DNA of 40,077 nt. It comes from a virus (Duplodnaviria; Caudoviricetes). The stretch lies in IMG/VR virus record IMGVR_UViG_3300016667_000323, positions 1 through 40,077 of that record. One strand, 5' to 3'. The stretch's first letter is position 1. Every line of letters begins with the position of its first letter. The notes beneath the pieces were generated by a model. It worked only from the letters and a program-made list of their open reading frames with translations, had not been told where the DNA came from and did not search any database. This document shows, piece by piece, positions 124 to 40,077 of the stretch. A program made the position numbers and the translations under genes.

Positions 124-152
124 TTGTGGTCATACCGTCTTGTGGCTATACT
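124..152 (+). promoter_or_regulatory. Putative sigma70-type promoter for the integrase
   Basis: TTGTGG (124-129), 17-bp spacer, TATACT (147-152); GGAG Shine-Dalgarno before ATG 176. Confidence 0.55.
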
Positions 153-14612: not shown

Positions 14613-14613
14613 T

Positions 14614-14799
14614 ATGTGGGCGGCCATCGGTGTCGCCCTGTCGGCCCTGATCCGAGAATTGGTCGGTCAGGTTTGGAGACGTGCCAATGAACCTTCACTA
14701 TCGAAGGATGCCCCTTCTCCTCCCGGCACTACTTACGAGCGCTTTGCTCGCCGGGTGCGGGGGTACACGAGTGGTATTCGTCCACCCGACCGACCATGA
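14614..14799 (+). CDS. Putative Rz-like inner-membrane spanin
   Basis: N-terminal hydrophobic anchor; overlapped by a lipoprotein ORF in another frame. Confidence 0.5.
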   Translation: MWAAIGVALSALIRELVGQVWRRANEPSLSKDAPSPPGTTYERFARRVRGYTSGIRPPDRP

Positions 14800-14968
14800 T
14801 CTTGTAAGACTTGGCCCCGATGTCCGGGGCCATGTCTATTATTGGAACGGCTCCGATTGGGAGCTGTCCAAGAACGAAGTCCGCATACCCGAGGGCTGGT
14901 ATGCGGGCTACGTCTCCCCCGAGGGGCGAGACTCCACTAGCCCTGACCCGACTCCCAACCACCAGTAG
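14687..14968 (+). CDS. Putative Rz1-like outer-membrane lipoprotein (o-spanin)
   Basis: Signal peptide RRMPLLLPALLTSALLAG-C with canonical lipobox LAGC; GGAG upstream of ATG 14687. Confidence 0.6.
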   Translation: MNLHYRRMPLLLPALLTSALLAGCGGTRVVFVHPTDHDLVRLGPDVRGHVYYWNGSDWELSKNEVRIPEGWYAGYVSPEGRDSTSPDPTPNHQ

Positions 14969-15065
14969 CTCCGGTCCCCGCTGAGGCGGGACCGACCGCG
15001 ATAGCGCGGCTGGATGGGGTCACCCGTGTCTCTTTCGCACCCCATCGATTAGGAATCAATCTCCA

Positions 15066-16157: not shown

Positions 16158-16172
16158 TCTAGCCTGAACTAG

Positions 16173-16204
16173 GGCCCGGTCCCAGAAATGGGATCGGGCC
16201 TTTT
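16173..16204 (+). terminator. Intrinsic terminator after the capsid gene (T-phi analogue)
   Basis: Stem GGCCCGGTCCCA / TGGGATCGGGCC with GAAA loop, followed by TTTT. Confidence 0.85.
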
Positions 16205-16223
16205 ACCAACCCCGGAGACCCCC

Positions 16224-16814
16224 ATGGCCATCTCAATCACATCGAAGCTTCAGGCCGTCAACACCATGCTGGCGACGATCGGTTCGTCCCCCGTCAACAG
16301 CCTCACCGGCTCGAACTCCGCCGATGTCGCCATGGCGGTCCAGACGCTGGACGAGGTGAGCCTCGCGGTCCAGTCGAAGGGCTGGCACTTCAACACCGAC
16401 GAGGACCGGGAGCTGACCCCGGACCCCATCTCCAAGGAGATCGTCGTCGGAAGCAACGTTATCCTCTGCGACGTGGACAACAGCTCGTCTGTGGATGTCG
16501 TCCTACGCGGCACCCGGCTGTACGACCGTGTGACCAAGACCTACCAGTTCTCACAGTCCGTGAAGGCCAAGATGGTGGTCGCCCTCGAGTGGGACGAGCT
16601 TCCGCAGGCTGCCCGTCAGTATGTGATGATCCGGGCCGCCCGCATCTTCTCAGACCGCGCCGTCGGCTCCGAAAAGCAGCACACCTTCACGCTCCGCGAC
16701 GAGCTGGTCGCCCTGTCGAACCTCAGGCGATACGAGGGCGAGACGGCCGACCACACCATCTTCGACCATTACGACGTGTACCGCGTGATCGATCGCCAGT
16801 ACCCCCTGTTCTGA
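16224..16814 (+). CDS. Tail tubular protein A (gp11)
   Basis: LQAVNTMLATIGSSPV, VQSKGWHFN, LPQAARQYV..RAARIF. Confidence 0.93.
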   Translation: MAISITSKLQAVNTMLATIGSSPVNSLTGSNSADVAMAVQTLDEVSLAVQSKGWHFNTDEDRELTPDPISKEIVVGSNVILCDVDNSSSVDVVLRGTRLYDRVTKTYQFSQSVKAKMVVALEWDELPQAARQYVMIRAARIFSDRAVGSEKQHTFTLRDELVALSNLRRYEGETADHTIFDHYDVYRVIDRQYPLF

Positions 16815-26200: not shown

Positions 26201-29200
26201 GCCCCCGAAGGTCTCCTCGGGATCTTCTCGAAGCTGGCCGACTGGATGCGCAACATCTACCGCGACATCAAGGGCAGCGAGCTTGACATCCAGATCAGCC
26301 CCGAGGTCAAGGAGGTGTTCGACAAGCTGGTGAGCCGCGGCCCGGGCTACGAGAGGGCCGTCTCGACCACCGCAACCACCGCGGCCGTCGGTGCCCGTGG
26401 CGCTGGCCGTGGCCCCACGCTCCTCGAGCAGGCTGCCACCAGCCCCGACCTTGGGAAGCCCGGTGGCGTCCCCAACGCCCCGATCAACTTGACCAACTTC
26501 AGCACCGCGGACGATGTGAACCGGGCGGTCGATGACTTCATCAAGCAGGAGCCTCTGGTCTCCACGCTGGCTGACGTTCCGCCCGAGGCGCTGTCGCAGG
26601 TCGCCAAGGAGGCTCAGGACAACTTCGATGCCATCTCCCGAATCAGCGGTGAGAAGGACCCCCTCGACTTCCAGAGGTACCTGAGCACCGATGGCTTCTC
26701 GGCCTATGACCTGTCGCAGGCCAGCCGCCAGCTTCAGGGTCTCCGCAAGTTCGCCGCTTCGGTGTCGTCCCGCATGCTCGAGTTGTCCACCAAGGGCAGC
26801 GCAGCGTCGCAGGAGGACATCTACGAGTTCCTCGCGGCCCGTACCGCGTCGAACGCTGCGATCCAGTCGATCAAGGAGCGTCAGCGCGAGGTGGCCCGCA
26901 TGCTGGGTGCCATGCGCATCAACCCGACTCCTGAGAAGATCTCGATGCTTCCGCCCCTCCCCAAGGCCGGGGAGGTGAAGCCCACCGTCGCCGCGGCTGC
27001 CACTAGCCCCGCTGCGGTACCCAGCCCGGGTGCGCTGCCCACGAGCGCCGCTGCCGTCGCTCCCTCCCCGGCCGCGATCAATCCACTCATGGATGAGGCT
27101 ATGCGTGCTCGTGTCATCCAGCAGGAGATCGAGCGGGCCGGCGGCGAGGATGCCGTCAAGGCCCAGATGGCCAAGTTCGCCGCGGCTGCTGCCTCGGGTG
27201 GTGAAGAGGCCGTCATGAAGCTGGCCCGCGGCTACCGCTCTGGCAACGCGCTGGTCGAGTACTGGATGAACAGCATCCTGTCGGGCCCGGTGACCCACGC
27301 GGTCAACATCTCGGCCAACCTGCTGACCGCCCTGTACCTGCCTATGGAGCGTGCCCTTGGGGCCACCCTGAGGGGAGACATGAAGGGGGCCAACGCGGCC
27401 CTGCGGCAGTACGTGCACATGGGCCAGCAGTTCGGTGACGCAATGCGGCTGGCCTACACGGCCCTGAAGATGGACGCGAACATCCTCGAGTCCGTCGGTA
27501 CGGCCGAGAAGGACGTGATGGGCCGGGCGATCTCGGCCCGCGGCTTCGGTATGGCTGACGACAGCACTGGCGGCAAGGCCGTCAATTGGCTGGGCAACCT
27601 GCTGAACCTGCCCACGCGCTTCCTGACTGCCGAAGACGAGTTCTTCAAGCAGCTCAACTACCGCTCCAGCTTCCTCACGGAGCTGCACATGGAGGGCATG
27701 AACCGCTTCAAGGGCAACCCGCAGGCTGCCGCCAAGTGGGCTCAGGAGACCTTTGACCGGGCCCTTCAGGACGGTCAGGCCTATGCCGAGAGTACGGTCC
27801 TGAAGCGGGCCTACGCCGAGGCCGACAAGGCCATCTCGGCCGGCACGATCAAGGCCCCGGAGAAGATCGACTTCGTGGCCAAGTACATGGCCGACTCGAA
27901 GAACTGGGACCCGGAGCTGGGCGTCCTGTCGGATCGGGCCATGTCGCAGGCGCGCTACGCGACCTTCAGCACCCCGCTGACGAACGACCCGAACGCCATG
28001 CTCACGACCCGTCTGGCGTCGCGCATTCAGGCCGCCGCGAACGAGCACCCGCTCATCCGCTTCGCCCTGCCGTTCATCCGCACCCCAACGAACCTGCTGA
28101 ACTTCACGCTGGACCGAACCTTCGTCGTGAACCTGCCGGCCTCGAGGCAGGCCTTCGGTGAGATGTCGGCCGCGCTGATGTCGAAGAACCCGCACGTCAA
28201 GAACGACGCCATGGGTCGCCTTGCGTTCTCCGCGGCGGCTGCCTTCACGGTGGGCACCGCGGCCTTCAGCGGCGTGATCACCGGAGGTGGCCCGAAGAAC
28301 AAGAACGAGCGTGACATGAAGATGCAGACGGGCTGGCAGCCCTACTCGATCCGCATCGGTGACAAGTACGTCAGCTACCGCCGCGAGGACCCCTTCGCGT
28401 CGATCATCGGCCTCGTGGCCGACGTGGTGGAGGGTTACCAGTACGCCGACGAGAAGGGCGCTGTCGGTCTCGACAAGGCACTGAACACGATCGTTCTGGC
28501 GATCTCTCGCAACATCACGAACAAGACGTATCTGACGGGCATCACCAACATCTCTAACGCGATCTCCAACCCGGAGCAGTTCGGCCAGACGCTGGTGAAC
28601 CAGTACGTCAGCTCGCTGGTGCCGTTCAGCTCCGCGCTGAGCCAGTCGATCTCTACCGTCGCTGACGATCCGGTGATGCGTGACACTCGGACCATGCTGG
28701 ACGCCATCCGGGCGAAGATTCCGTTCCTTGCCGAGCAGGTTGCCCCCAAGCGCAACATCCTCGGTGAGGCGGTCACCCGCCCGAGCAGCGTCGGCCCCGA
28801 CATGTTCAGCCCGCTGACCTACACCGAGGTGAAGGACGACAAGATCCTGCAGGAGTTCAACCTGCTGGGCCACGGCTTCACCCCGCCCAAGGAGCAGCGT
28901 GGGGCGATCGACCTGACCACCTTCTCGACCCGCAGCGGGCAGCAGGCCTACGACCGTTGGCTCGAGCTGCACGGCACGGTGCGCGTCGGTGGCCGCACCC
29001 TCCGCGAGGCTCTGCTGCGTGAGATCAACTCCCGCGGCTACCAGCGTCTCAGCCCGGCCTCCACGGAGGACTACGACTCTCCACGCATTCGCCAGCTCAG
29101 GGAGGTCATCGCGACCTACCGAGAGGCTGCCTACAGGCAGCTCCTCAGGGAAGCCCCCGAGCTGGACCGCGCGTCTCGCCTCGATTTCGCCAACAAACAA

Positions 29201-29254
29201 GCCCTGCGGATGGGCCGCAGCGCACAAGAACTGTTCGATCTCGGAAACCGCTAA
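23216..29254 (+). CDS. Internal virion protein D (gp16-like), 2012-aa multidomain protein with embedded SAM-methyltransferase and HExxH domains
   Basis: Position before the fibre gene; gp16-like C-terminal motifs EYWMNSILSG, PFIRTPTN, GWQPYS; internal VDIGGGRFD...NVLNVI...LKPGG and HEIAH. Confidence 0.85.
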   Translation: MSAFANFADEFYNLSATNSVRHAAAGMGGDTPEKKQQDWGVFDYATDMALGVPRGVLSAASDMVNLAGLPFGYEVENRFGLMADSESVAGGITEGIANFMTGMIPGGLVAGGLSKVAKGYKMVKAIDTAAEIAKASGNLTKYNAIRGAQALVKGSVAGAVADFVAFDGHEERLSNLLRDHAGLSDPLTAYLAADKNDSEIAGRFKNALEGLAIGGLTEGLFNAFRMYKAGFTVKSAGGSADAVDAAMNAEAHQIRLEQRDQIKTSFNLTDEEADVTNMLIDRMGLDRSKLKVVSGQEAQQAYDMASGALEQRKKFDPVAALPQDAQELKNLLDPEEWASIKSQGTLDSLVGLYKRFDVELMPLLRAAAEAGSPVHGGYEEGAAIMRKLVGDTRAELFANFSAATSPQNKVAAHTRLGVGITADVIDRIRAGNIAEMGLDEMRTIVDSVGTRLKAKGMVEDYAKRSLGIANDLLGRLRTLQEANPSASMDELLNTVDATGLYKNMAGTGMEKGAGKVPGFAEGSAGRLNKVVLDTYMARLVPDDLFPNLAASELMDAKKEWLGKAANYTAFSATVRKLSTELGIMPGHAQERIWGAVYVIGALKKEGMNPEAVYKNLSKEDMLASWDLLSILQKPEVTNELRRLGADEGSLADLAGLAADVRQRVRPNLNTPIRVSDPAALEELARRVPKFSGSSGTEVTAARAARGATLLNQEAAVSRADLWKVPEQAFSSADTSINASKLPTGFTKVEQAGGWKPGTVNVDIGGGRFDNAVEKLSTLGVDSKVFDPFNRSAEHNNAVSAAVAGGKADTATIFNVLNVIKEPENRLRVLQQAEDALKPGGKLYIQVYEGDASGVARATGGNKFQLNQKLKDYLPEVQKVFPEARVEKGLIVAEKSTSVLRQGEGSVRGFAAFAEDGKAVIGGLKNPDVGTAVHEIAHVGRRQLFDRAVPQEARMGISDADIGVMEKWAGVTDGTWTRPAEEKFANGFMKYLRDGEAPEGLLGIFSKLADWMRNIYRDIKGSELDIQISPEVKEVFDKLVSRGPGYERAVSTTATTAAVGARGAGRGPTLLEQAATSPDLGKPGGVPNAPINLTNFSTADDVNRAVDDFIKQEPLVSTLADVPPEALSQVAKEAQDNFDAISRISGEKDPLDFQRYLSTDGFSAYDLSQASRQLQGLRKFAASVSSRMLELSTKGSAASQEDIYEFLAARTASNAAIQSIKERQREVARMLGAMRINPTPEKISMLPPLPKAGEVKPTVAAAATSPAAVPSPGALPTSAAAVAPSPAAINPLMDEAMRARVIQQEIERAGGEDAVKAQMAKFAAAAASGGEEAVMKLARGYRSGNALVEYWMNSILSGPVTHAVNISANLLTALYLPMERALGATLRGDMKGANAALRQYVHMGQQFGDAMRLAYTALKMDANILESVGTAEKDVMGRAISARGFGMADDSTGGKAVNWLGNLLNLPTRFLTAEDEFFKQLNYRSSFLTELHMEGMNRFKGNPQAAAKWAQETFDRALQDGQAYAESTVLKRAYAEADKAISAGTIKAPEKIDFVAKYMADSKNWDPELGVLSDRAMSQARYATFSTPLTNDPNAMLTTRLASRIQAAANEHPLIRFALPFIRTPTNLLNFTLDRTFVVNLPASRQAFGEMSAALMSKNPHVKNDAMGRLAFSAAAAFTVGTAAFSGVITGGGPKNKNERDMKMQTGWQPYSIRIGDKYVSYRREDPFASIIGLVADVVEGYQYADEKGAVGLDKALNTIVLAISRNITNKTYLTGITNISNAISNPEQFGQTLVNQYVSSLVPFSSALSQSISTVADDPVMRDTRTMLDAIRAKIPFLAEQVAPKRNILGEAVTRPSSVGPDMFSPLTYTEVKDDKILQEFNLLGHGFTPPKEQRGAIDLTTFSTRSGQQAYDRWLELHGTVRVGGRTLREALLREINSRGYQRLSPASTEDYDSPRIRQLREVIATYREAAYRQLLREAPELDRASRLDFANKQALRMGRSAQELFDLGNR

Positions 29255-29257: not shown

Positions 29258-30604
29258 ATGGCCTACTCCTACCAACTCCATACCGTCGGTTCGTCCGCCT
29301 CGACCGGACCGTTCTCCTACGCCAACATCAACGGCTACCTCTCCACGTCACACCTGAAGATCTACATCAACGGGGCCCTGTACGGTGGAGGCTACGTCCT
29401 TGACGACACCGCCAAGACGATAACGCTTGGTACCGCTGCGCCGGCTGCGGCCACTGTGCTCATCCAGCGCGAGACTCCCAAGACCGTAGCTGGCCGTGTG
29501 GTGGACTTCGCTGACGGCTCCGTGCTGACTGCTGCGGATCTCGACAACGCCAACCTGCAGAACCTGTACATCGCTCAGGAGGCTGCCGACGCGGCGACGG
29601 ACTCGATCGGCCTCGCCAGCGACGGCATCAACTGGAACGCTCAGGCCAAGCGGGTGACCAACGCGGCGTTGGCCGTCAGCCCCGGCGATCTGGTCACCAA
29701 GCAGTACGTGGACGACCTGCAGCTCTATGGAACTGCCACGGCTGCCCCTCAGGACTGGGCTTTCACCGGCAACAACTCCACCACCGTGTTCTCGCTCAAC
29801 CCTGCCCCGCTGGCGACTGATGCGAAGATGTTCATCGTGGAGGTCGGTGGTGTTCTCCAGCGTCCCACGACGGACTACACCGTCAACGCTGCTGCGATCA
29901 CCTTTGCGAGCGCCCCGGGCAACGGAGTCGGAATCCGTGTGCGAAACTTCGGGGTGGCCCGGACCACCGGCAGCGTGACCACGGCAACCATCGCTGACGG
30001 TGCGGTGACCACCGCGAAGCTGGCGAGCGGGGCCGTGACGAACGACAAGATCGCCTCCGGGACCATCACTCAGGATCGCCTTGGATTCACCGTCAGCGCC
30101 ATGGACGTGAACGGCGACATTAAGGCTGACAATAATCTTGTCGGTTACGGGCACCCACGTCTCCGCGCAGTGACCAAGGCAGTCACTGGCACGAACTACC
30201 GAGGCACCGGCCGCCTGACCACGAACTTTTGGACCGGAACGGCCGCCGAAGGTTACGTCTACGACAATAAGAATGCGTGGTCGAACACTACCGGCCGCTA
30301 CACCATCACAACTGATGGATGGTACCGCATCGACTACACCATCTCGTTCTCGAACGGAAACGGCGAAATTACTGATGCGTATCTGGAAATCGGGAACTAC
30401 AACGGCACCCAGTTCGACGTGAGATACGACATCGGTGCCCGCGCAAGGTCCACTCTGAGTACGACCGGGAGCATGTCGTCTGGAACTCTGATCTACCTTC
30501 AGTCTGGCCAAACGGTTGCTCTGTGCGCTCAGCAGAGCGCCAACTCCTTCCTGCTCCGTGACTCGGACGGGCGCACCGTCTTCACCGTCTGCTACCTGCC
30601 CTGA
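29258..30604 (+). CDS. Tail fibre protein (gp17-like N-terminus, C1q/TNF-like C-terminus)
   Basis: IQRETP...VDFADGSVLTAADLD adaptor; DLVTKQYVD; (I/L)A.GAVT..K repeats; TGRYTITTDGWYRI...YLQSGQTV. Confidence 0.88.
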   Translation: MAYSYQLHTVGSSASTGPFSYANINGYLSTSHLKIYINGALYGGGYVLDDTAKTITLGTAAPAAATVLIQRETPKTVAGRVVDFADGSVLTAADLDNANLQNLYIAQEAADAATDSIGLASDGINWNAQAKRVTNAALAVSPGDLVTKQYVDDLQLYGTATAAPQDWAFTGNNSTTVFSLNPAPLATDAKMFIVEVGGVLQRPTTDYTVNAAAITFASAPGNGVGIRVRNFGVARTTGSVTTATIADGAVTTAKLASGAVTNDKIASGTITQDRLGFTVSAMDVNGDIKADNNLVGYGHPRLRAVTKAVTGTNYRGTGRLTTNFWTGTAAEGYVYDNKNAWSNTTGRYTITTDGWYRIDYTISFSNGNGEITDAYLEIGNYNGTQFDVRYDIGARARSTLSTTGSMSSGTLIYLQSGQTVALCAQQSANSFLLRDSDGRTVFTVCYLP

Positions 30605-30619
30605 TCCCAAGGACCAACC

Positions 30620-31318
30620 ATGCCTCTCAACACCATTCACCAGTCCATGCTGTCTGGCGTTCTACTGGCCGCCAACAACCTGTCGGAGCTTGGGGCCACG
30701 GCCTCGGCTCAGGAAGCCGCCCAAGGCAACCTCGGGGTCAACACCGCCATCCCCATCGGTGTCGTCCTCCCGTTCGCCAGCGGCACTGTCCCGCAGGGCT
30801 GGCTGCTGTGCGCCGGTCAGACCGTCAGCCGCACGACCTATGTTGATCTGTTCAACGTCATCGGCACGACATACGGGGCGGGCGACGGCTCGACCACATT
30901 TGCCCTGCCCGACTTGCGCGGCCGTACTGTGGCTGGCCGAGACAACATGAACGGGACCACCGCGGGTCGCTTGAGCACGGCCCACTTTGGTGCCACCGGC
31001 CTATCTCTGGGTCAGTCCGGCGGGTCCGAAGGTCAGGCTCTTACGGAGGCCCAGTTGGCATCGCACAGCCACTTTGTGGCCAACACTGACGCCACCACCA
31101 ACACTTCCCCGTCTCTGGGTGCTGCCCAGACGCTTACCGCCAGCAATATCCACAGTAATCTCGATCCAAATTACACGCTTAACGGATCGGCCACGGCCGC
31201 CACGGTGGGCCTGTCGTCGTCAACGGGTTCAGGCTCTGCACACAACAATGTGCAGCCGACCATGATTCTGAACTACATCATCAAGGCCAAGTTCGTCTCT
31301 GCGGTGGCCGTCCCATGA
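30620..31318 (+). CDS. Tail collar-domain short fibre protein
   Basis: PIGVVLPFA..VPQGWLLCAGQ.VSRTTY.DLF.VIGTTYGAGDGSTTFALPDLRGR and HNNVQP...NYIIK. Confidence 0.9.
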   Translation: MPLNTIHQSMLSGVLLAANNLSELGATASAQEAAQGNLGVNTAIPIGVVLPFASGTVPQGWLLCAGQTVSRTTYVDLFNVIGTTYGAGDGSTTFALPDLRGRTVAGRDNMNGTTAGRLSTAHFGATGLSLGQSGGSEGQALTEAQLASHSHFVANTDATTNTSPSLGAAQTLTASNIHSNLDPNYTLNGSATAATVGLSSSTGSGSAHNNVQPTMILNYIIKAKFVSAVAVP

Positions 31319-31539
31319 GCAACGTTGACGAGCAGCTCTTCCTTACCCTCGGGAGGCTCGAGGGCAAGGTGGACACCCTCCTGTCCCTCCAGAAGGTTCA
31401 GGAAGAGCAGATCAAGGAACATGACCAGCGCATCCGCTCGCTGGAGAACTCAAAGGCTTTCCTTATGGGAGGCTCAGCGGTGATCGGTGCGGCTGTGTCG
31501 GCCGCGTTCAACCTTCTCTCCAAGATTTACACCCACTGA
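31315..31539 (+). CDS. Small membrane protein (coiled coil plus C-terminal TM), holin/XhlA-like
   Basis: LGRLEGKVD...HDQRIRSLE followed by a hydrophobic helix; canonical T7 holin slot. Confidence 0.6.
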   Translation: MSNVDEQLFLTLGRLEGKVDTLLSLQKVQEEQIKEHDQRIRSLENSKAFLMGGSAVIGAAVSAAFNLLSKIYTH

Positions 31540-31548
31540 GGTACACAC

Positions 31549-31872
31549 ATGCGCATCTACAACGCCGTCGAAAATCAGAGCATCGCCAGCCTTGGAACCT
31601 ACAACGGACCCATCTTTCGCCCGTCATTCATGGACGACGAGGACGGCATCTTTCAGGTCGGAAGCTACACAGGCCCCGGTGCCGCCACGTTCATCCTGCA
31701 GGGCCGTCTTGTCCCTGCAGCCCCATGGGTCAACATCGTCCTGAACTCGGCCGGAGACACCTCGGCCTCGGACGCTGGTTACTTCCTCGTTCCGATGTTC
31801 CCCGAGATGCGTGTGGTCGTGTCCGCCAGCGGCGGCTCTGTGAGCGGCTGCAACGCATGGATCGGTGACTGA
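31549..31872 (+). CDS. Hypothetical beta-rich protein
   Basis: GAGG RBS; tight packing between neighbours. Confidence 0.65.
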   Translation: MRIYNAVENQSIASLGTYNGPIFRPSFMDDEDGIFQVGSYTGPGAATFILQGRLVPAAPWVNIVLNSAGDTSASDAGYFLVPMFPEMRVVVSASGGSVSGCNAWIGD

Positions 31873-32104
31873 CATGGCCGACGACAAGAAGCTGCTCGAG
31901 GAGCTGCACTCCGCTCTGGTGGCCACTCTGCTGGCCAAGATCCAGAGCGGAGAGGCCACGGCCGCCGACTTCGGCGTGGCCCGGCAGCTCCTCAAGGACA
32001 ACGGCATCGACATCGCAGCCAAGGCCGGCTCTCCCGTCCTGAAGCTGGCCGAGGTCATGCCTTTCGACCCTTCTGAGGATTCCGAGCTGAAGTATGGAAC
32101 TTGA
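31865..32104 (+). CDS. terS: Terminase small subunit (gp18)
   Basis: LEELH...I.SGEATAAD..VARQLLKDNGI; probable start 31874. Confidence 0.88.
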   Translation: MTDMADDKKLLEELHSALVATLLAKIQSGEATAADFGVARQLLKDNGIDIAAKAGSPVLKLAEVMPFDPSEDSELKYGT

Positions 32105-33740
32105 CCCCCGCCTGAAGGACTTCCGCAACTTCCTGCACATGGTGTGGAAGCACCTTGGGCTCCCCAAGCCCACCCCGGTGCAGTACGACATCGCCCGCTA
32201 CCTTCAGGCGGGCCCGCGTCGTGCCGTAGTGGAAGCCTTCCGTGGTGTAGGCAAGTCCTACGTGACCAGCGCGTTCGTGTGCCACCAGCTCCTGCTGGAC
32301 CCGGCCAAGAACATCCTCGTGGTCTCCGCCAGCAAGCAGCGCGCGGACGACTTCAGCACCTTCACCCTGCGTCTGATCGAGGACATGCCCATCCTCGCCC
32401 ACCTGCGGCCCAAGGAGAACCAGCGGTACTCTAAGGTCTCCTTCGACGTGGGCCCAGCGCCGGCCCAGCACGCCCCCTCGGTGACCTCCAAGGGCATCAC
32501 CTCGCAGATCACCGGAAGCCGCGCTGACCTGATCGTGGCAGACGACATCGAGGTCCAGAACAACTCCATGACGCAGGCCATGCGCGAGAAGCTGGCCGAG
32601 AGCGTCAAGGAGTTCGACGCGGTTCTCAAGCCGAACGGCCGGGTGATCTACCTAGGCACACCGCAGACCGAGAACTCGATCTACAACATGCTGGCCGATC
32701 GCGGCTACGAGATCCGCGTGTGGCCCGCTAGGGGCCCCGACGAGAAGCAGAAGGTGGCCTACGGGGATCGTCTGGCCCCCATGGTGCGGGAGCTGAAGAC
32801 GGGCCAGCCGGTCGATCCTGACCGCTTTGACGAGACCGAGCTGATCGAGCGCGAGCTGTCCTTCGGCCGCTCAGGGTTCGCCCTGCAGTTCATGCTGGAC
32901 ACATCCCTGAGCGATGCCGATCGATTCCCGCTCAAGATCAACGATCTGATCGTCATGGACTGCAACCCGGAGCTGGGCCCCGAGAAGCTGATCTGGGGCA
33001 CCATGCCGGATCTGGCTCACCGGGACCTGACATGCGTCGGGTTCAATGGCGATCGATACCACCGGCCGATGTCCGTCGTGGGCGAGTGGATTCCCTACAC
33101 GGGCTCCGTGATGGCCATCGACCCCTCGGGCCGTGGCTCCGATGAGACCGCCTATGCGGTCGTCAAGATGCTCAATGGCACCCTGTACGTGACGGCCGCC
33201 GGGGGTATCCCCGGTGGCTACAGCCCGCAGGCCCTAGAAGGGCTGGCCCAGATCGCCAAGCGTCAGAAGGTCAACCACGTCATCGTGGAGTCCAACTTCG
33301 GTGACGGCATGTTCACGGAGCTGCTGAAGCCCGTGCTGTCCAAGGCCCACCCCTGCGCTATCGAGGAGGTTCGCCACTCGATCCAGAAGGAGCGGCGCAT
33401 CATCGACACCCTCGAGCCGGTCATGAACCAGCACCGTCTGGTGATCGACACGGGGGTCATCCGAAACGACATCGTGTCCACCCGGGACATGCCATCGGAG
33501 AAGGCCCTGCAGTACCAGCTCATGTACCAGCTCAGCCGCGTCACCCGCTCCAAGGGGGCGCTGGCCCACGACGACCGCCTCGACGCACTGGCGATCGGGG
33601 TGGGGTACTGGGCCGAGAAGATGGCTCAGGACGTGGACAAGAAGATGCGGGAGCGACGGTCCCGGGCCCTCGACAGGGAGCTTCAGAAGTTCATGAACCA
33701 CGTTATCGGTCATACCCCCAAACAGACGACGTGGATGTAG
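32094..33740 (+). CDS. terL: Terminase large subunit (gp19)
   Basis: AFRGVGKS, TGSRADLIVADDIE, YLGTPQ, IDPSGRGSDET, ESNFGDGMF, HDDRLDAL. Confidence 0.97.
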   Translation: MELDPRLKDFRNFLHMVWKHLGLPKPTPVQYDIARYLQAGPRRAVVEAFRGVGKSYVTSAFVCHQLLLDPAKNILVVSASKQRADDFSTFTLRLIEDMPILAHLRPKENQRYSKVSFDVGPAPAQHAPSVTSKGITSQITGSRADLIVADDIEVQNNSMTQAMREKLAESVKEFDAVLKPNGRVIYLGTPQTENSIYNMLADRGYEIRVWPARGPDEKQKVAYGDRLAPMVRELKTGQPVDPDRFDETELIERELSFGRSGFALQFMLDTSLSDADRFPLKINDLIVMDCNPELGPEKLIWGTMPDLAHRDLTCVGFNGDRYHRPMSVVGEWIPYTGSVMAIDPSGRGSDETAYAVVKMLNGTLYVTAAGGIPGGYSPQALEGLAQIAKRQKVNHVIVESNFGDGMFTELLKPVLSKAHPCAIEEVRHSIQKERRIIDTLEPVMNQHRLVIDTGVIRNDIVSTRDMPSEKALQYQLMYQLSRVTRSKGALAHDDRLDALAIGVGYWAEKMAQDVDKKMRERRSRALDRELQKFMNHVIGHTPKQTTWM

Positions 33741-33812
33741 GGATTACCTTAAGGAGAAGCCTAAAGAGAGGCCTAGGACGGGGAGGGCCGGGTAGGCCGA
33801 ATCCTTAGGTGA

Positions 33813-34058
33813 ATGAACATGACCACCAGAAATTATCGTCAGGAATACCTCAAGTACCACTCGAGGCCTGATCAGATCCACAAGAGGTCACTCAGGAACT
33901 CAGCCCGCCGTCTCATGATCAAGGACGGTAGGGCTTCCAAGGGTGACGGAATGGAAGTGGATCATCGCCACCCCTTGTCCAAGGGTGGCTCCAATCGTCT
34001 CAGCAACCTGCGGGTCGTAACCCGCCACACCAACCGAGTCAAAGGAAACCGAGCATGA
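33813..34058 (+). CDS. Small HNH endonuclease
   Basis: EVDHRHPLSKGGSN..SNLRVV.RH.NR. Confidence 0.85.
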   Translation: MNMTTRNYRQEYLKYHSRPDQIHKRSLRNSARRLMIKDGRASKGDGMEVDHRHPLSKGGSNRLSNLRVVTRHTNRVKGNRA

Positions 34059-34330
34059 GCTACAAGTACAAGAAGATGGAGTTTCACGGCCTGAAGATCG
34101 CCTCGGGTTCCCCTGAGGCCAATGCCTCGAAGATGGTTCAGGGACGCCTCGGTCGCAAGGGCATGCTGATCAGTCCCAAGGCCAAGCGCAAGCCCTCCAA
34201 GAGTGGCCACAGGCGCTTCCTTGGGTTCCGCGCTATGGAAGCCATGTGGACTGGCCAGCTCGCTGGCGGCCTCGGCACCGGCACTGGCGCTGGTGGTGGT
34301 GGTGGCCCCATCCCCGAGGGCCTTCTGTGA
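34055..34330 (+). CDS. Hypothetical basic protein with Gly-rich tail
   Basis: ATGA overlap with the HNH gene and GTGA overlap with the next gene. Confidence 0.55.
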   Translation: MSYKYKKMEFHGLKIASGSPEANASKMVQGRLGRKGMLISPKAKRKPSKSGHRRFLGFRAMEAMWTGQLAGGLGTGTGAGGGGGPIPEGLL

Positions 34331-34647
34331 AGATCAAGATCGGAGCCATCCACGTTCCTGTCCTGACGGAGCCCATCGCAGGCGACGAGGCCGACGAGGT
34401 GGTCCTTGGGGAGTACTCCGCTGGACCCAACCCCTGCATCCGTCTCCACCCCGCCCTCAAGGGGGCCGAGCTGTCGGCCACCCTGCTGCATGAGGTGCTG
34501 CACGCCATCGCTGACCTGTACGGGCTCGATGATGTCCTTGGGGAGCGCGAGGTGCGCATACTAGAGATGGCCATCAGCATGTTCGTTCAGGACAATCCCA
34601 AGGCAGTCCAGCAGATCCTGCAGGACTTGCTAGAATCCCGTCCGTGA
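34327..34647 (+). CDS. Small zincin-like metallopeptidase (HExxH; ImmA/IrrE- or SprT-like)
   Basis: GTG start (MKIKIG...), TLLHEVLHAI and a downstream Glu (EREV). Confidence 0.7.
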   Translation: MKIKIGAIHVPVLTEPIAGDEADEVVLGEYSAGPNPCIRLHPALKGAELSATLLHEVLHAIADLYGLDDVLGEREVRILEMAISMFVQDNPKAVQQILQDLLESRP

Positions 34648-34654
34648 TTCTCCT

Positions 34655-34689
34655 GCCCCCCGTCTGGGTAACACCGGGCGGGGGGTTTC
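34655..34689 (+). terminator. Intrinsic terminator closing the late operon
   Basis: GCCCCCCGTCTGG-gtaaca-CCGGGCGGGGGGT followed by a short T tract. Confidence 0.65.
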
Positions 34690-35065
34690 CCTAGGAGGGG
34701 GTGGAGTGCCCTTCGTCCAAGAACGGGTGTGCCACTAACGCAGCCCGTAGGATGCCCCAAGGGGGCGATGAGGGTAAGTCGCGTAAGACCCTCAGGGCCC
34801 ACCCCCGGCCATTTGGTGGAAAAATCTGAAGCGGGATGCGTAACGCTAGCCCCGCCGCCGCCCCCCGTGGCCCGCCCGGCGCCCGCCCGGGGCTGCCCGG
34901 CAGGGGGGTGACAGGCCCGCCCGGGGCTGCCCGCCACGCCGGGCTGCCACAGGCAGGGGCTAACCCCTTGAAACTGCTGGGGTTGCAGCAGACATCGAGT
35001 GTGCTGGGGCACGGGGCAGGCGCTGGGGCGTGCGTGCGGGAGCGTTCGGGAGCGCACAGGACGCG

Positions 35066-35261
35066 CTAGGACGGCTCAGGATCGATCGGCGGCATGTTCG
35101 GCTACCCTTGTGGTAGCCTTTTTTGCGATCGATTGTGGAGCATTCTGCTGCGTTATACGGGGGATGCCACCAAACCGCCTACGATGCCTCAGGATCGACC
35201 GGGAGCGGCAAGGGGTCACGGCACGGGTCAACCCCTGCGGATCGATCCTGAGCCGTCCTAG
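35066..35261. repeat. Perfect 22-bp inverted repeat (35066-35087 / 35240-35261)
   Basis: CTAGGACGGCTCAGGATCGATC and its exact reverse complement GATCGATCCTGAGCCGTCCTAG. Confidence 0.9.
35184..35261. repeat. ~79-bp palindromic element, copy 1 (direct repeat of 39745-39823)
   Basis: ATGCCTCAGGATCGA...CGGCAAGG...ACGGCA...CGGATCGATCCTGAGC..TCCTAG. Confidence 0.85.
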
Positions 35262-35333
35262 AGGCCGCCCGGAGCGTTCGGGATCGATGGCATGGCATGA
35301 TAGGGGCGTGATAGCGCCGCCCGGGGCCACGCT

Positions 35334-35367
35334 GGGGGCCGGCACGGGGGCCGGCACGGGGGCCGGC
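35334..35367. repeat. 12-bp tandem repeat (GGGGGCCGGCAC), about 3 copies
   Basis: Visible directly. Confidence 0.8.
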
Positions 35368-35484
35368 CTCAGGCCGGCGCGCTGGGCCGCCTCAGGCCGG
35401 CCCGGGGGCTGCCCATGCGACAGCGCCCGGGGCATGCTCAGGGGCAGGCCGCCGGGCGCTGGGGTGGGTGGGCGCTGGGGGCGC

Positions 35485-35598
35485 TCAGTAGTCGCTGGGG
35501 TCGTGCCGTTCCAGCAGCGCCGCGAGCGGGGCCAGCAGCAGCAGGGGCAGCGTGGCCACGCCCGCCACGACCAGCACGGTGAGCATGGCGGCCATCAT
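35485..35598 (-). CDS. Small membrane protein, 37 aa (MMAAMLTVLVVAGVATLPLLLLAPLAALLERHDPSDY)
   Basis: Translated by hand; ATGA overlap with the upstream gene and GGAGG RBS; one TM helix. Confidence 0.6.
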   Translation of the reverse strand: MMAAMLTVLVVAGVATLPLLLLAPLAALLERHDPSDY

Positions 35599-35786
35599 CG
35601 GCGGCCTCCCATCATGCGGTCGATCTCAGCCGCGCACCGCGTGCAGGTGGTCGCGCTCTCGCCCGCGTTCGCGCTGGCAATGTCGCACGGCACACTCGAG
35701 AACACCACGCGCTCGTCGTGGTGCACAGGCTCGCCGCATGCGTCGCACGTGGTGAACGCATCGAACAGGTCGGGGTCGGTGCTCAC
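35595..35786 (-). CDS. Small zinc-finger protein (CxxC...CxxC), 63 aa
   Basis: CDAC and CTRC; GTG start in a GTGA overlap preceded by AGGAGG. Confidence 0.7.
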   Translation of the reverse strand: MSTDPDLFDAFTTCDACGEPVHHDERVVFSSVPCDIASANAGESATTCTRCAAEIDRMMGGRR

Positions 35787-36340
35787 GCTGCACCTCCTTC
35801 CTCGCCCTCGTGACGAGCGGCCATGCGCCGCGCCCAATCGATCAGCGACTGCTTGATCTCTTCGGCCTGCTCTTCGGCCTCAGCCTTCGTGAGTCCTTCG
35901 GCCTTCGCCTTCTTCGCCGCATGGGCACGCGCCATGCTTTCGGCCACGGTGGCGGCGGCGCTGTCGCCGTCGCCATTGCCCAGCCGCTGCACCAGCACCT
36001 GCGACGCGAGGCTCATCAACTCGACCTGCGCGGTGGCCATCGCATCGCCCAGCGTCTGCATCACGACCGTCATTTCCGCATCGGTCGGCTCGCGATCGAT
36101 CGCACCGTGCCGCGCGAGGAACTCGCCCAGCCGCGTGACCGTGCCGCGATCCATCAGCAGCGTCACGTCGAGCACGCGGCCGGGATCGTTCGGCATCGCA
36201 CGCGCGTACACGCGGCGCTGCGACGGGGGCAGGATGTTGGTCGGCACGTCGTACAAGATGCTGCCGTTCGGGCCGGGCTGGGCCTCGATCTGGTGGTGCG
36301 TGAACTCGATGCCGTCCTCGTTGTGTTCGTGACTTTCCAT
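35783..36340 (-). CDS. Hypothetical protein, 185 aa (MESHEHNEDG...)
   Basis: GGAGAG RBS before ATG 36340, nearly identical to the integrase start context; helical C-terminus. Confidence 0.7.
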   Translation of the reverse strand: MESHEHNEDGIEFTHHQIEAQPGPNGSILYDVPTNILPPSQRRVYARAMPNDPGRVLDVTLLMDRGTVTRLGEFLARHGAIDREPTDAEMTVVMQTLGDAMATAQVELMSLASQVLVQRLGNGDGDSAAATVAESMARAHAAKKAKAEGLTKAEAEEQAEEIKQSLIDWARRMAARHEGEEGGAA

Positions 36341-36480
36341 TGTGATCTCTCCAATCGTTCGCAATCGATCGCGCACCAACGCGGTGCGCCCCTCGTCAAC
36401 GCGAGGGCGTGGGGGTCGCGCGTGGTGCGCGGCCTGCACGCCCGCACGCTGCGTGAGCAGCGGGGGCTTGGAGAGAACGG

Positions 36481-36570
36481 TCATTCCCGACGACGTGGCG
36501 CGTAGAGCATGAAGCCCGCAGCGCATGCCGTGACGACGACGGCGACGACGAAGCGCAGCAGGTCGTTCAC
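36481..36570 (-). CDS. Small membrane protein, 29 aa (MNDLLRFVVAVVVTACAAGFMLYAPRRRE)
   Basis: Translated by hand; GGAGG RBS and GTGA overlap with the vWA stop; single TM and basic tail. Confidence 0.55.
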   Translation of the reverse strand: MNDLLRFVVAVVVTACAAGFMLYAPRRRE

Positions 36571-38396
36571 GCTGCACCTCCCTTCGCCAGCCGCGTGATG
36601 GCGCGGGCCAGCAGAGGCCCGGCGCTGCGAGTGTCGGGAATCGAGATGAACCGACGAGGGCCGAAGCAGGCCGCGCCGGTGTTCGCCATCTCGCCCTCGA
36701 TGCCGACGGCGAGGAACTCGATGCCGCGTGCTTCGGCGCTGCTCACCACGCCGCGAATGTGACGCGCAGCCTTCTCGCCTCTGTACCCGTGAGCGTTCGG
36801 CTCGCCGTCGGCCACGAGCAGCACGATGCGGCGATCGGCCCGCATGCGTGCAGCGCGATCGACCGCGTGGGCGATCGCGTAGCCGTCGGCATTGTCGCCG
36901 CCAGCGTGCAGGCCCGTGATGCTTTCGGGCGTGGCGCAGGTGTCATACGACACACGGCCGACGCGGCCGTACCCGTATCCGACGGAGTGCCCAGCCACCT
37001 CAACCTTGAACCGTCCGCCATTGCCGAACGCCTTCGCGAGCGCGAACGCCACACGCTTCGCGGCCTCGATGCGCGACGTGCCTTCCCGCGTGTGGCAGCC
37101 CATCGATCCGCTGCAATCCACGAGCACCTGCACGCCGACGGTGGTCGGCGCCTTCTCAGCGCGCACCTCGAACACGCGATCGTCGCCGAACGCTGCGAGG
37201 CGATCGAGCGCGCCTTCGTCAATGTCGCCGCGCTGCTGGCCACGCTCGAACACGGGCGGCGTGGTGCTCTCCCACACGATGCGTGATAGCGCAGCGATCA
37301 GGGGACGCGCCCCTTCTTCGAGGCTGCGCAGGCTGTACCTGTCGATGCGCGCCTTGTGTTCGTGCACGGGGTAGCGGCCGTCGGCCTCGTCACCTTCCGC
37401 CTTGACGTGGGCCGCGCCGATCTCAGGCGCTGCGGGCTGCGTGAGCGTGCTCGTGAGGTGCGCGCCGGGCTTGTGAGTGTCGCCCAGCATCTCAGCGGCC
37501 TCGCTGGCGGGAACCTGCTGAGGCTCGCCAGCACCGTCGCCCTCGCCCGCACCACCCTGAGGCTGCTCCGCGCCCTCAGGCTGCGCGGCCAGCATGGCGG
37601 CGACGGCAGCATCGGCGCGGGTCAGCATCTCGCCGTGCTTCCACAGCGTGCTCAGGTGCTCGCGCCCTGCTGCGGCCATCATCTCGATCTCCTGCGGTGC
37701 GCTCGCGCCTTCCGGCCACAGGCTCAGCGCCTGCGCGCTCAGCAGCGCGGACGCGCGCACGATCGCCGCCGCCTTCCCATCGTTCACGAACGAATGCAAC
37801 GCTTCGGGAACGCTCGCGCCCGCCTCGCTGGCCTTGAAGTAGCCCGCCCAGCCGGGCCATTCCGCCAGCACCTTCTCACGACCGCGAACGGTCGCGATCG
37901 ATGCCGCGAGGTGAGCGCCCGCGTATTCGGCGGCGAGTGTGTCGGCGCGGTGCGGCAGGTGAGAGGCCAGCCGGTAATCGATCACGCGGCGCTCGATCGT
38001 GGCGCGCTCTGCGGCCTTCAGGTACGTGGCCTTCGAGGCTTCCGTGAGCAGGCGGCCCGTGGTGAAGTCCACGGCATGCTCAGGGCTGCTGGCGCGTGCG
38101 AGGATGTCGCCGCCGCTCACGACGAGGCTGCCCTTCGTCACGTAGGTCGAGGCGCGCACCTCCTCGCCCGTCCACGAGGTGACGGTGGCGCTCGCCGCGC
38201 GCAGGGTGCGCTCGATGAACGCGGCGCGCTGCTGATCGCTGGCGGTCGTCGCGTCGATCGCGTCGATGCGCGCGTTGGTGAGCATGTCGCCCACCGACGC
38301 GCTGGGGCTGAACGATGCGCCGCCGACTGCGGTCGCGTAGGTGCTGGACTTGGCAAGCCACTTGGGGGTCATGTTGGGGTTCTCCATGTTGGGCAT
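36567..38396 (-). CDS. CobT-like von Willebrand A domain protein (MoxR partner)
   Basis: MIDAS VLVDCSGSM, VADGEP, GIEFLAVGI; GDIDEGALDRL...RVF pre-vWA motif; acidic linker. Confidence 0.88.
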   Translation of the reverse strand: MPNMENPNMTPKWLAKSSTYATAVGGASFSPSASVGDMLTNARIDAIDATTASDQQRAAFIERTLRAASATVTSWTGEEVRASTYVTKGSLVVSGGDILARASSPEHAVDFTTGRLLTEASKATYLKAAERATIERRVIDYRLASHLPHRADTLAAEYAGAHLAASIATVRGREKVLAEWPGWAGYFKASEAGASVPEALHSFVNDGKAAAIVRASALLSAQALSLWPEGASAPQEIEMMAAAGREHLSTLWKHGEMLTRADAAVAAMLAAQPEGAEQPQGGAGEGDGAGEPQQVPASEAAEMLGDTHKPGAHLTSTLTQPAAPEIGAAHVKAEGDEADGRYPVHEHKARIDRYSLRSLEEGARPLIAALSRIVWESTTPPVFERGQQRGDIDEGALDRLAAFGDDRVFEVRAEKAPTTVGVQVLVDCSGSMGCHTREGTSRIEAAKRVAFALAKAFGNGGRFKVEVAGHSVGYGYGRVGRVSYDTCATPESITGLHAGGDNADGYAIAHAVDRAARMRADRRIVLLVADGEPNAHGYRGEKAARHIRGVVSSAEARGIEFLAVGIEGEMANTGAACFGPRRFISIPDTRSAGPLLARAITRLAKGGAA

Positions 38397-38409
38397 TGTA
38401 GCGACTGCC

Positions 38410-39543
38410 TCAGGCTGTCAAGGGGCCGAACTTGCCCACCAGCAGCGCGGTGATGGTCGCGCGCTCAGACTCCGCGCCGCCCTCAGCGGGGAACAGATTC
38501 GCGATCGTGAACGCCAGCGACGACGGGCCGACGAGGTGATAGTCGGATGCCGCCGCCAGCAGTTGGCGCGTGCTCAGCGTGGTGCTGAAGGTACTCACGC
38601 CCGCCTGCGTGGTGCGGGTCTTGGTGGCGATCTCCACGAGGCGCTGGGCCACGCTCGCGTCGATGCCCGTGCGATCGACCAGCAGCGCGGCCTCGTCGGC
38701 GGCGGGCAGGTAGGTGAACTCCACCACGCGCGGGAAACGATCGCGCAGCGCGGCATCCATCGGCCCCGTGCCCGTGAACTGCGAACCCTCGTTCATGGTC
38801 GCGACGAACACGGTGCTGGGCGCGACGCGCACCACGCTGCCGCGCTCATCGACCAGCGTCGCACGACGGCGATCGAGCAGGGGCAGCAGCGCGTTGCCGA
38901 CGGTCAGGCTGGCGCGGTTCGCCTCATCGAGCACGACGACGCAACGGCCGCGCGTGATGGCGCGCACGAACTGCGAATCCTGCCACGCGATCGAGCCGCC
39001 GCGCACGGTCTTGGAGCCGAACCAATCGCGCGGCTCGCGCACGATCGAGCAGTCGATCACGAACGCATCGAAGCCAGCCATCGCGGCCAACTGAAGCGCC
39101 GCCTCAGTCTTGCCGCAGCCTGCGGGGCCGACGAGGCGCATCTGCTCGATCGCGCCGCATTGCGCGCTCTTGGCGATCCGTTCGAGGTAACCGCGCAGCG
39201 TGCTGCTCATGCGGAAGGTGGTGTCGAGCGCCGGGGTGACGAGCGCGTCGGTGTCGTGCGTGATAGTGGGCGCGGCCTCAGCGACAGGCGCGGGGGCCGG
39301 GGTCGTGGTGACGGCGCCCACGAAGCGGTACGCGCCGCGTCCGATCTCGCGCGCCTCGCCGCGCAGCACCTTCTCACGCACGGCGCGCCGCAGGTAGTTG
39401 TCGTCGGCGCCCAAGTCGGCCACGCCAGCGCCGCGCAGGCTGTCGCGCAGGCTGTCGAGGGTGACGGTCGAGGTGGTGGTGGTGGCGAGAGTGTCGAGCG
39501 CGTCAATGACGGCGACGAACGAAGAAGAGCGGGACTTCGGCAC
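38410..39543 (-). CDS. MoxR-family (CobS/CbbQ/NirQ/NorQ-like) AAA+ ATPase with a probable N-terminal winged HTH
   Basis: Walker A GPAGCGKT, Walker B VVVLDEANR, ATMN, DAALRDRF, STRQL; GTG start 39543 preceded by GGAG/GAGGAGG. Confidence 0.92.
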   Translation of the reverse strand: MPKSRSSSFVAVIDALDTLATTTTSTVTLDSLRDSLRGAGVADLGADDNYLRRAVREKVLRGEAREIGRGAYRFVGAVTTTPAPAPVAEAAPTITHDTDALVTPALDTTFRMSSTLRGYLERIAKSAQCGAIEQMRLVGPAGCGKTEAALQLAAMAGFDAFVIDCSIVREPRDWFGSKTVRGGSIAWQDSQFVRAITRGRCVVVLDEANRASLTVGNALLPLLDRRRATLVDERGSVVRVAPSTVFVATMNEGSQFTGTGPMDAALRDRFPRVVEFTYLPAADEAALLVDRTGIDASVAQRLVEIATKTRTTQAGVSTFSTTLSTRQLLAAASDYHLVGPSSLAFTIANLFPAEGGAESERATITALLVGKFGPLTA

Positions 39544-39621
39544 GGGTGAATCTCCGCACCTCCTCGCGTTCTCTCCGCCGCTCCGCATGGAGCAGTCGCG
39601 GCACGAGGTGGTGCAGCGTGC

Positions 39622-39649
39622 ACGGTACAGACTGCTCCCGCACCGTCAA
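39622..39649 (-). promoter_or_regulatory. Putative sigma70 promoter for the minus-strand operon
   Basis: TTGACG, 16-bp spacer, TACCGT on the minus strand. Confidence 0.45.
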
Positions 39650-39744
39650 GGGGGGGTGCACGGGAAAGTTTCGGTTTCGTGGAACATTTCGCGCAGGGCG
39701 TGCTTCGGTGCAAGCATGCCCGCAGGCTCAGGAAGGCCGCTAGA

Positions 39745-39823
39745 ATGCCTCAGGATCGATCCGACCCCGGCAAGGTCTGACGGCATAGGGTAGGTGCTCC
39801 GGATCGATCCTGAGCGATCCTAG
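39745..39823. repeat. ~79-bp palindromic element, copy 2, with a perfect 14-bp internal inverted repeat
   Basis: CTCAGGATCGATCC (39749-39762) / GGATCGATCCTGAG (39801-39814). Confidence 0.85.
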
Positions 39824-39829
39824 CGATAC

Positions 39830-39878
39830 ACACTACATGTTGTGGTCACTCGAGCGGCTCGACCACAACCTGTAGTGG
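39830..39878. promoter_or_regulatory. Inverted repeat made of two NrdR-box-like 16-mers
   Basis: ACACTACATGTTGTGG (39830-39845) and CCACAACCTGTAGTGG (39863-39878); arms 16/17 complementary. Confidence 0.5.
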
Positions 39879-39924
39879 TCGATCGGTCGCGATCGGTTAT
39901 GGGTCATTTCATGGTGGAGTGAAA

Positions 39925-40039
39925 CGGTTTCAGCGTGCGGTGAATCGGTTTCAGCGTTCGGTGAATCGGTTATCGGCCGCGATCGATCGGGCAGGCCGGG
40001 GGCGAGCGCCGGGGCTGGGGCGAGCGCCGGGGCTGGGGC
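39925..40039. repeat. Tandem repeats: 21-bp CGGTTTCAGCGTKCGGTGAAT x2 and 18-bp GGGGCGAGCGCCGGGGCT x2
   Basis: Visible directly. Confidence 0.8.
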
Positions 40040-40077
40040 AGGCGAGGCGCGCGGCGGCGATCGGTCGCGATCGATCC

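Follow-up and report, generated by a model that had tools for sequence, protein, structure and literature searches.

An inverted MoxR ATPase/vWA gene module in the predicted early region of a clade of T7-like phages

Results

Gene content of the module and its genomic setting

The IMG/VR record IMGVR_UViG_3300016667_000323, a virus sequence of 40,077 nt which is classed as linear and rated as 100% complete by CheckV, was analysed over its full length (called the window in the following). As judged from Pfam and PHROG scans of 37 proteins, its plus strand carries a T7-like gene order consisting of integrase, RNA polymerase, single-strand binding protein, RusA, primase-helicase, DNA polymerase, exonuclease, portal, scaffold, capsid, tail, internal proteins, fibres, terminase, and HNH genes. 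The identity of the RNA polymerase to the best 15 cultured-phage records among the matches listed does not exceed 37%. All family-named genes outside the region dealt with here are T7-like and located on the plus strand. The exceptional region extends from 35485 to 39543 and is a block of minus-strand genes coding for a MoxR-type AAA+ ATPase, a partner with a von Willebrand factor A (vWA) domain, and several smaller proteins. A preliminary description had listed six minus-strand genes there, and all six open reading frames (ORFs) are present:

38410..39543, minus strand: MoxR AAA+ ATPase of the CbbQ/NorQ type, 377 aa (AAA_5 E 3e-22, CbbQ_C E 7e-7)
39319..39525, minus strand: predicted N-terminal winged-helix domain of the ATPase (residues 7-75; AlphaFold topology alpha-beta-alpha-alpha-beta-beta, predicted local distance difference test score (pLDDT) 80-87), followed by a disordered linker
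36567..38396, minus strand: vWA partner, 609 aa (family scan, alignment, fold search)
36481..36570, minus strand: hydrophobic micro-protein of 29 aa (ORF list, locus comparison)
35783..36340, minus strand: 185-aa protein of no known family, the conserved third module gene in T7-like carriers
35595..35786, minus strand: 63-aa CxxC...CxxC protein, predicted zinc finger (weak family match, E 0.004)
35485..35598, minus strand: hydrophobic micro-protein of 37 aa (ORF list, locus comparison)

Three of the gene junctions are stop/start overlaps (GTGA, GTGA, ATGA), and a gap of 140 nt lies 5' of the 185-aa gene. The ribosome binding sites had been called strong, which holds for five of the six starts (GGAG or GGAGG); the vWA start is preceded only by a remote GAGG. 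As a unit, the proposed six-gene operon is reduced to three genes, because a comparison of the loci indicates that the conserved core is the trio of ATPase, vWA partner, and 185-aa protein, with variable micro-proteins. The hydrophobic transmembrane segments of the latter were read off the sequence by eye, without a predictor. Hydrophobic ORFs of 30-44 aa occupy the place of the 29-aa gene in L025 and the L004 lineage, and none was called there in L002, L024, L012, and L026. The 63-aa protein has a homologue only in L002/L003 (44%), and counterparts of the 37-aa gene are the last ORF of L002, which shares LAPLAALLER with it, and hydrophobic ORFs in L024 and L025. A plus-strand ORF picked by the ORF caller (35287-35856) was discarded as a shadow ORF, the minus-strand genes being backed by homology.

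The module differs from the core genome in composition (70% versus 63% GC, CpG ratio 1.33 versus 1.01), and together with the linear classification of the contig this might suggest a chimeric join or flanking host DNA. The richness in CGCG and GATCG noted previously exists as such (29.8 versus 7.3 and 13.1 versus 6.1 per kb in module and core), but neither word exceeds the expectation from shorter words (rho 1.0), and GC3 of the module equals that of the core. The CpG excess recurs in six of seven relative loci (which include two pairs of near-duplicates), and the composition is therefore regarded as a trait of the lineage rather than of a join. Moreover, a 17,785-nt contig covers positions 30500-40077 (possibly from the source run, and so not surely independent), the same layout is found in five lineages, and 7 of the 39 ATPase homologues with 58-81% identity reside on contigs that measure 37.7-41.4 kb, with no homologue on anything longer. 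A chimeric join is thus already refuted by independent synteny, which leaves this explanation a probability close to nil. The same vWA protein is also recorded on a contig of 40,452 nt. Source contigs add 8 nt past the end of the window and 210 nt ahead of its start, and no att joint was seen in them. As a side observation, CCGG is depleted in the module (rho 0.48) and not in its relatives.

The ATPase, its vWA partner, and the 185-aa protein

Homologue alignment places the start of the ATPase at a GTG codon rather than at the ATG at 39588. Family scan, alignment, and predicted fold agree on an intact AAA+ core and CbbQ_C lid, with invariant Walker A (GPAGCGKT), Walker B (LDEANR), arginine finger, and sensor 2 (STRQL) motifs. 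The AlphaFold model (pLDDT 81) is closest in its core to CbbQ (Z 23.0, rmsd 2.9 over 255 residues) and NorQ (Z 20.8), the next rows following at Z 15.9, and Foldseek agrees on these nearest folds. The N-terminal winged helix proposed in the preliminary description is retained for its predicted topology, the Pfam AbiEi_4 match staying below the cut-off (E 0.037).

The vWA partner is predicted to consist of an N-terminal alpha/beta domain, a low-confidence linker, a finger-like segment, and the vWA domain, whose MIDAS (the adhesion site that depends on a metal ion) is intact and invariant (DCSGS...D530). Its best fold match is NorD (Z 20.0, rmsd 2.8 over 212 residues), which covers residues 357-605 and thus includes the segment preceding the vWA domain, followed by the Rea1 MIDAS domain (Z 18.2). 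The assignment as a MoxR-vWA remodeller is therefore borne out by the nearest folds of both proteins. A vWA ORF is located downstream of the ATPase gene in 68 of 93 loci, most of the misses being short contigs. A peptidase motif HExxH is absent from the partner in the window and from 66 of the 68 partners, and is placed at a different position in the other two.

The 185-aa protein is encoded 3' of the vWA gene in 15 of 127 loci, all within the T7-like ATPase clade; its profile was built from seven of these, the others being near-duplicates. It has 30 matches among 1.84 billion representatives, a few of which are probably spurious repeat proteins, no match to curated Pfam, PHROG, NCBIfam, PADLOC, or PDB entries, and no usable match in Atlas.

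These data also bear on a viral CobST that uses host CobN to raise cobalamin synthesis. Such a hijack has been proposed for tailed viruses (PMC8651126; here and below, citations refer to those parts of the papers that were available), the PHROG labels read 'porphyrin biosynthesis' and 'cobalamin biosynthesis', and CobT is the best PDB sequence match of the vWA profile (E 3e-7). Model searches, in which the Caulobacter positive control matched, gave no hit to the CobS model TIGR01650 at E 0.01 and only 19.2 of 759 bits, below the cut-off, for the CobT model TIGR01651, and the ATPase is nearer to NorQ/CbbQ (E 3e-23) than to CobS (2e-8). CobN was not found in the phage genome (0/1, with 5 of 14 controls positive), though the host may have one of its own, a ribonucleotide reductase is lacking among the window genes covered by the family scans, and the winged helix would stay unexplained. 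An ordinary cobaltochelatase pair is accordingly very unlikely.

Distribution and relatedness

A neighbourhood survey of homologues had been suggested in the preliminary description. The loci were gathered by an alignment-based search, since a single-sequence locus search gave only one distant locus. T7-like core genes are present in 10 of 103 ATPase loci, representing five lineages, and the ATPase gene is antisense to the core in all ten. The terL gene is convergent on the module in L002, L003, L012, and L025, and the ATPase gene is divergent from that of the RNA polymerase, 0.7-1.2 kb apart and without an integrase in between, in L004, L028, L029, L030, L031, and L051 (six loci, three lineages).

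In quick trees, from which Gordonia phage GMA6 was dropped because its ATPase did not match the Walker A regular expression, the T7-like ATPases are united in a single group (support 84 and 90), whose sister group is found in phages of about 50 kb with family-A polymerases (98 and 99), within a phage-only radiation. The wider ATPase family is phage-borne as well, the only match in 185,579 species genomes being a 56% homologue from a Planctomycetota metagenome-assembled genome, where it lies on a contig of 1,230 nt. Planctomycetota could not be established as hosts: 401 genomes yielded terL matches of only 40-47% in five of them and no homologue of the 185-aa protein. Two larger elements stand out: L001, a 120-kb phage, contains two tandem ATPase-vWA pairs (4589-7685 and 9479-12792), and L049, a 143-kb contig, has at 3960-16660 a cluster that combines a PRPP synthetase and a NAMPT with three ATPases of the MoxR type and their partner genes. 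Genes for NAMPT and PRPP synthetase have an anti-defence role, and this neighbourhood, like the phage-borne nature of the wider family, favours the reading preferred in the Discussion.

Position at the predicted left end and transcription signals

The following signals were recognized around the module:

34820..34829, plus strand: terminal-repeat marker AAAAATCTGA, once in the window, downstream of terL
35064..35282, both orientations: four copies of a CTCAGGATCGATC-type repeat (repeat search)
35100..35124, plus strand: predicted intrinsic terminator directed at the module, with conserved counterparts in L002, L003, and L025
39622..39649, minus strand: predicted host sigma70 promoter TTGACG-16-TACCGT, 106 nt upstream of the ATPase start
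39719..40077: three further CTCAGGATCGATC-type copies (39719-39825) and a GATC/CGATCG cluster, upstream of the promoter
124..152, plus strand: candidate divergent promoter TTGTGG-17-TATACT 5' of the integrase gene (8/12), assuming that the contig ends adjoin

The marker AAAAATCTGA ends 7 nt before the annotated terminal repeat of T3, and also 7 nt before that of T7 if the latter starts where we take it to do. It is absent from the ends of phiKMV, SP6, and HTVC019P, and LUZ100 contains only a variant with two mismatches, 19 nt before the repeat. Among 85 terL loci, 35 were excluded for having less than 1.5 kb of downstream DNA; in the 50 kept, the marker (with two degenerate positions) is found on the plus strand 0.5-3.6 kb past terL in 34, upstream of terL in none, and on the reverse strand in one. 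Being strand- and position-specific near the terminal repeat, the motif AAAAAT[CT][CT]GA could be used to orient uncultured T7-like genomes. A tRNA-Leu(CAA) gene lies directly 5' of the marker in the close relative L025 (5412-5495); the window itself contains no tRNA.

From the marker, the left end of the virion DNA is predicted at about 34837-34850, and the module would therefore fill the first ~4.8 kb. Marker and synteny agree in placing it between this end and the integrase or RNA polymerase gene, with the termini predicted and the window ends unjoined. Of 16 terL loci that reach an integrase, RNA polymerase, or module gene, two contain the module (terL identities of 73% and 90%) and 14 do not (61-67%). 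Ten of these 14 have the marker, and their slot contains only sense ORFs in seven cases, mostly sense ORFs in two, and is unclear in one, whereas it is wholly antisense in the module carriers. Genes for DUF932, GP88, and destabilase proteins recur in the slot of the module-free loci L162, L171, L178, L185, and L199. All module genes and their promoter point at the predicted left end, unlike the early region of T7-like phages.

The module promoter candidate scores 8/12, and the built-in scan at a threshold of 9/12 returned no site. Nevertheless, a TTGAC[AG] box accompanied by a hexamer resembling a -10 element is found 84-112 nt upstream of the ATPase gene in 8 of 12 scanned regions (six of them distinct), the exceptions being weak sites in L025 and L031 and none in L023 and L103. 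The separate host-type promoter postulated previously is thus accepted because of its conservation among relatives, not because of its own score. In the interval from marker to module, no rightward promoter of 8/12 was detected for the window, L025, or L012, and the single one in L002 overlaps the marker.

The CTCAGGATCGATC-type repeat on both sides of the module may represent an operator, methylation sites, or the trace of an inversion. Outside genes it recurs exactly only in L023 and nearly exactly once in L025, and a clade-wide operator was therefore rejected. GATC occurs 12 times in 417 nt near the module promoter (4.2 expected). Between the two divergent promoters lies an alternating purine-pyrimidine tract (window 1-53, L025 1-77, L023 20-43, L031 near 5895), in which several assemblies break and which could form Z-DNA; it was not found in L051, L012, and L024. 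The idea that the winged helix binds Z-DNA, which the tract had prompted, was dropped for its absence from these three loci; the tyrosine that we take to be typical of Z-alpha domains is also absent from the winged helix.

The early slot and the strand argue against a chaperone for the assembly of tail or capsid proteins, a role that has been proposed for the MoxR/vWA pairs of jumbo phages and reported for an Acidianus two-tailed virus (PMC7824862). Such a chaperone would hardly be expected behind a host-type promoter, antisense to the late genes, and missing from 14 of the 16 terL relatives reaching the far side of the slot, and its peptidase motif is absent here. We regard this role as quite improbable.

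Whether the module is early or lysogenic had been left open in the preliminary description, and the early alternative is favoured, because three carrier lineages join the ATPase gene to the RNA polymerase gene without an integrase. A lysogen-expressed accessory operon, with superinfection exclusion by the micro membrane proteins and prophage upkeep by the ATPase, would fit the integrase in the window, which is probably divergent from the module, the small hydrophobic ORFs, and an outward host promoter that would stay on in a prophage without driving lytic genes. In addition to the three integrase-free lineages, a 97%-complete carrier (linear and possibly cut at that place) gave no integrase match, and no prophage copy was detected in the species genomes beyond the short contig mentioned above, which makes this operon improbable.

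Other features of the window

A gp16-like gene for 2012 aa (23216-29254) contains an S-adenosylmethionine-dependent methyltransferase domain at 25313-25915 on the plus strand (Methyltransf_23, E 4e-8) with a weak PADLOC mad2 match. If ejected together with the internal virion protein, this predicted methyltransferase could shield the incoming DNA. According to the family scan, the replication block further encodes domains of a pyrimidine-dimer glycosylase (6563-6973), a destabilase-type lysozyme (6838-7626), a LAGLIDADG protein (9401-9781), and a dATP/dGTP diphosphohydrolase (11007-11402).

Discussion

The module is real and its motor ordinary; its placement, its orientation, and the third subunit are unusual. 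We tentatively prefer to see it as a conserved inverted gene block of a T7-like phage clade, located in the predicted early region at the left end of the virion DNA, which may encode an ATP-driven remodeller that disables a defence complex of the host early in infection. Because genes for nor, cbb, or cobN are lacking, a host protein is the likely target, and a complex associated with DNA is suggested by the early slot, the host promoter, and the winged helix; among defence targets, a DNA-bound restriction enzyme encountered soon after entry appears most likely. By analogy to NorQD, whose mechanism is based on a ring, a vWA finger, and strain on the target (PMC13036017), six ATPase subunits would form a ring, one vWA protein would insert its finger into the pore and hold the target through its MIDAS and N-terminal domain, and ATP turnover would rotate the finger, thereby straining and twisting the target open. 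The winged helices may keep the ring on DNA, and the 185-aa protein may act as adaptor or effector. After entry of about 5 kb, host RNA polymerase would transcribe the block in the direction of the genome end; the terminator would stop rightward transcription from entering the module.

A precedent is known from IncC plasmids, where vcrx089-090 guard against type I restriction on entry (PMC7498323), with 424-fold and 906-fold protection against EcoBI and EcoKI (PMC11602122), and where Vcrx089, an ATPase of AAA_5 + CbbQ_C architecture (PMC7498323), is required in the recipient (PMC7498323, PMC11602122). Six genes downstream in pVCR94, a vWA gene for 598 aa matches the vWA domain from the window (hhalign 97%, E 9e-11). 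The Vcrx089-side plasmid ATPases L104 (6264-14254), L105, and L122 are accompanied by DUF3150 in all three plasmids and, in two of the stretches that were fetched, by a vWA gene; this co-occurrence in related plasmids suggests that the IncC vWA gene may be part of the Vcrx089 system.

Several observations weigh against an anti-restriction role and against this precedent. The plasmid vWA gene lies outside the tested vcrx089-090 deletion, Vcrx089 is only 23% identical to the ATPase from the window, and its grouping with the T7-like ATPases was rejected in an approximately unbiased test (p 8e-43; the group was named after the first tree and the branches are long). The 185-aa protein shows no likeness to Vcrx090 or DUF3150 (profile probability versus Vcrx090 0.2%), and the micro-proteins are too short to be Vcrx090. 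The winged helix is absent from the L002/L003 homologue, GATC and CGATCG are clustered rather than avoided in the flanks (GATC with p<0.05 in 5 of 11), and the pair is placed among replication genes (primase, polymerase, exonuclease) in the sister phages of about 50 kb. Finally, a promoter that lies 4.8 kb from the end and points outwards would act late, and is ill-suited to first-line anti-restriction unless entry is independent of transcription. In T7, entry is halted by gp16 at about 850 bp, the genome being pulled in by host RNA polymerase thereafter, and with point mutations in gp16 the whole genome can enter without transcription (PMC8954989). The inversion conflicts with this model, and a different entry route is therefore predicted for the clade: because no rightward promoter is found near the predicted end, the carriers likely enter further than T7 unaided, or from the other end. 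A bolder version, unlikely as a whole, would have the clade drop transcription-pulled entry altogether, with at least 5 kb entering without host RNA polymerase and the outward operon then producing a DNA-tethered three-component AAA+ machine that strips restriction or defence proteins off the phage DNA. If true, anti-defence would here be an active mechanism, in contrast to Ocr and other DNA mimics.

The same position and promoter would also serve an early remodeller directed at housekeeping machinery, such as RNA polymerase, proteins of the nucleoid or of replication, or a complex in the membrane. The predicted winged helix and the sister pairs amid primase, polymerase, and exonuclease genes are in line with it; no direct precedent was found in the literature searched, in which the only MoxR ATPase of a mobile element with a tested phenotype is anti-restriction. 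We consider this target class somewhat doubtful, and the disabling of a defence complex stays the preferred reading. For either target, a host-interaction role is argued from a 40-kb phage with hardly any spare genes giving its whole predicted early region to the pair, and the compact three-gene unit offers a way to test it.

Comparison with known systems

NorQ/NorD and CbbQ/CbbO provide the best fold matches for both module proteins and are likewise encoded by adjacent genes, and NorD and CbbO share with the partner a length of ~600 aa, a linker, a finger-like segment before the vWA domain, and a MIDAS. Identity is about 24%, the module further differs by an added N-terminal winged helix, a third gene, and its phage-borne nature, and no nor or rubisco target genes were found among the 37 window proteins scanned. 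The hde operon of IncC/SXT elements resembles the module in an AAA_5 + CbbQ_C ATPase on a mobile element, yet Vcrx089 is more CobS-like (103 bits, versus none for the ATPase from the window) and belongs to a separate clade; Vcrx090, DUF3150, and Ssb/Bet/Exo are not seen here, whereas the winged helix and the 185-aa protein occur in the phage module and not in the hde operon. A correlation with infectivity has been reported for genes similar to vcrx089 that were annotated in Pseudomonas phages (10.64898/2026.02.22.706922), and the main text of PMC11541004 does not mention vcrx, AAA, MoxR, or vWA.

MoxR/vWA pairs of phages are already well known, and cobST-like ones are widely reported in viruses (PMC8651126, PMC9503304, PMC7824862), often being counted as auxiliary genes of vitamin B12 synthesis. 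Their attribution to large T4-like phages in the preliminary description is too narrow, since they occur in tailed viruses of eight host orders (PMC8651126) and, in a phage of 48.8 kb, next to the terminal repeat (PMC9503304). The viral 'cobST' cluster of T4-like cyanophages, haloviruses, Mae-Yong1326-1, and Gordonia phage GMA6 shares the order of an AAA gene followed by a vWA gene. In Mae-Yong1326-1 the pair starts at 871, just inside the 366-bp terminal repeat, and is followed by ORFs of 29-78 aa, opposite to the next replication gene. The ATPase from the window matches 17 of 50,697 annotated phage records, all at 35% identity or less and on tree branches separate from the module ATPases; by name, none of the 17 is T7-like, if we assign their families correctly. 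The full-text literature searched (few subscription papers, no supplementary tables) contains no description of an inverted MoxR/vWA module in T7-like phages, and neither the placement nor the inversion nor the third subunit was found there. Jumbo phages also encode a MoxR/vWA pair (PMC7824862), with a peptidase HExxH that is lacking in the module, which is located in the early slot of a 40-kb podophage. LUZ100, an integrase-bearing T7-like phage, comes closest in layout with its order of repeat, early slot, integrase, and RNA polymerase; its early slot is equipped with host promoters and small sense early genes, whereas that of the module carriers is wholly antisense and filled with a large motor module.

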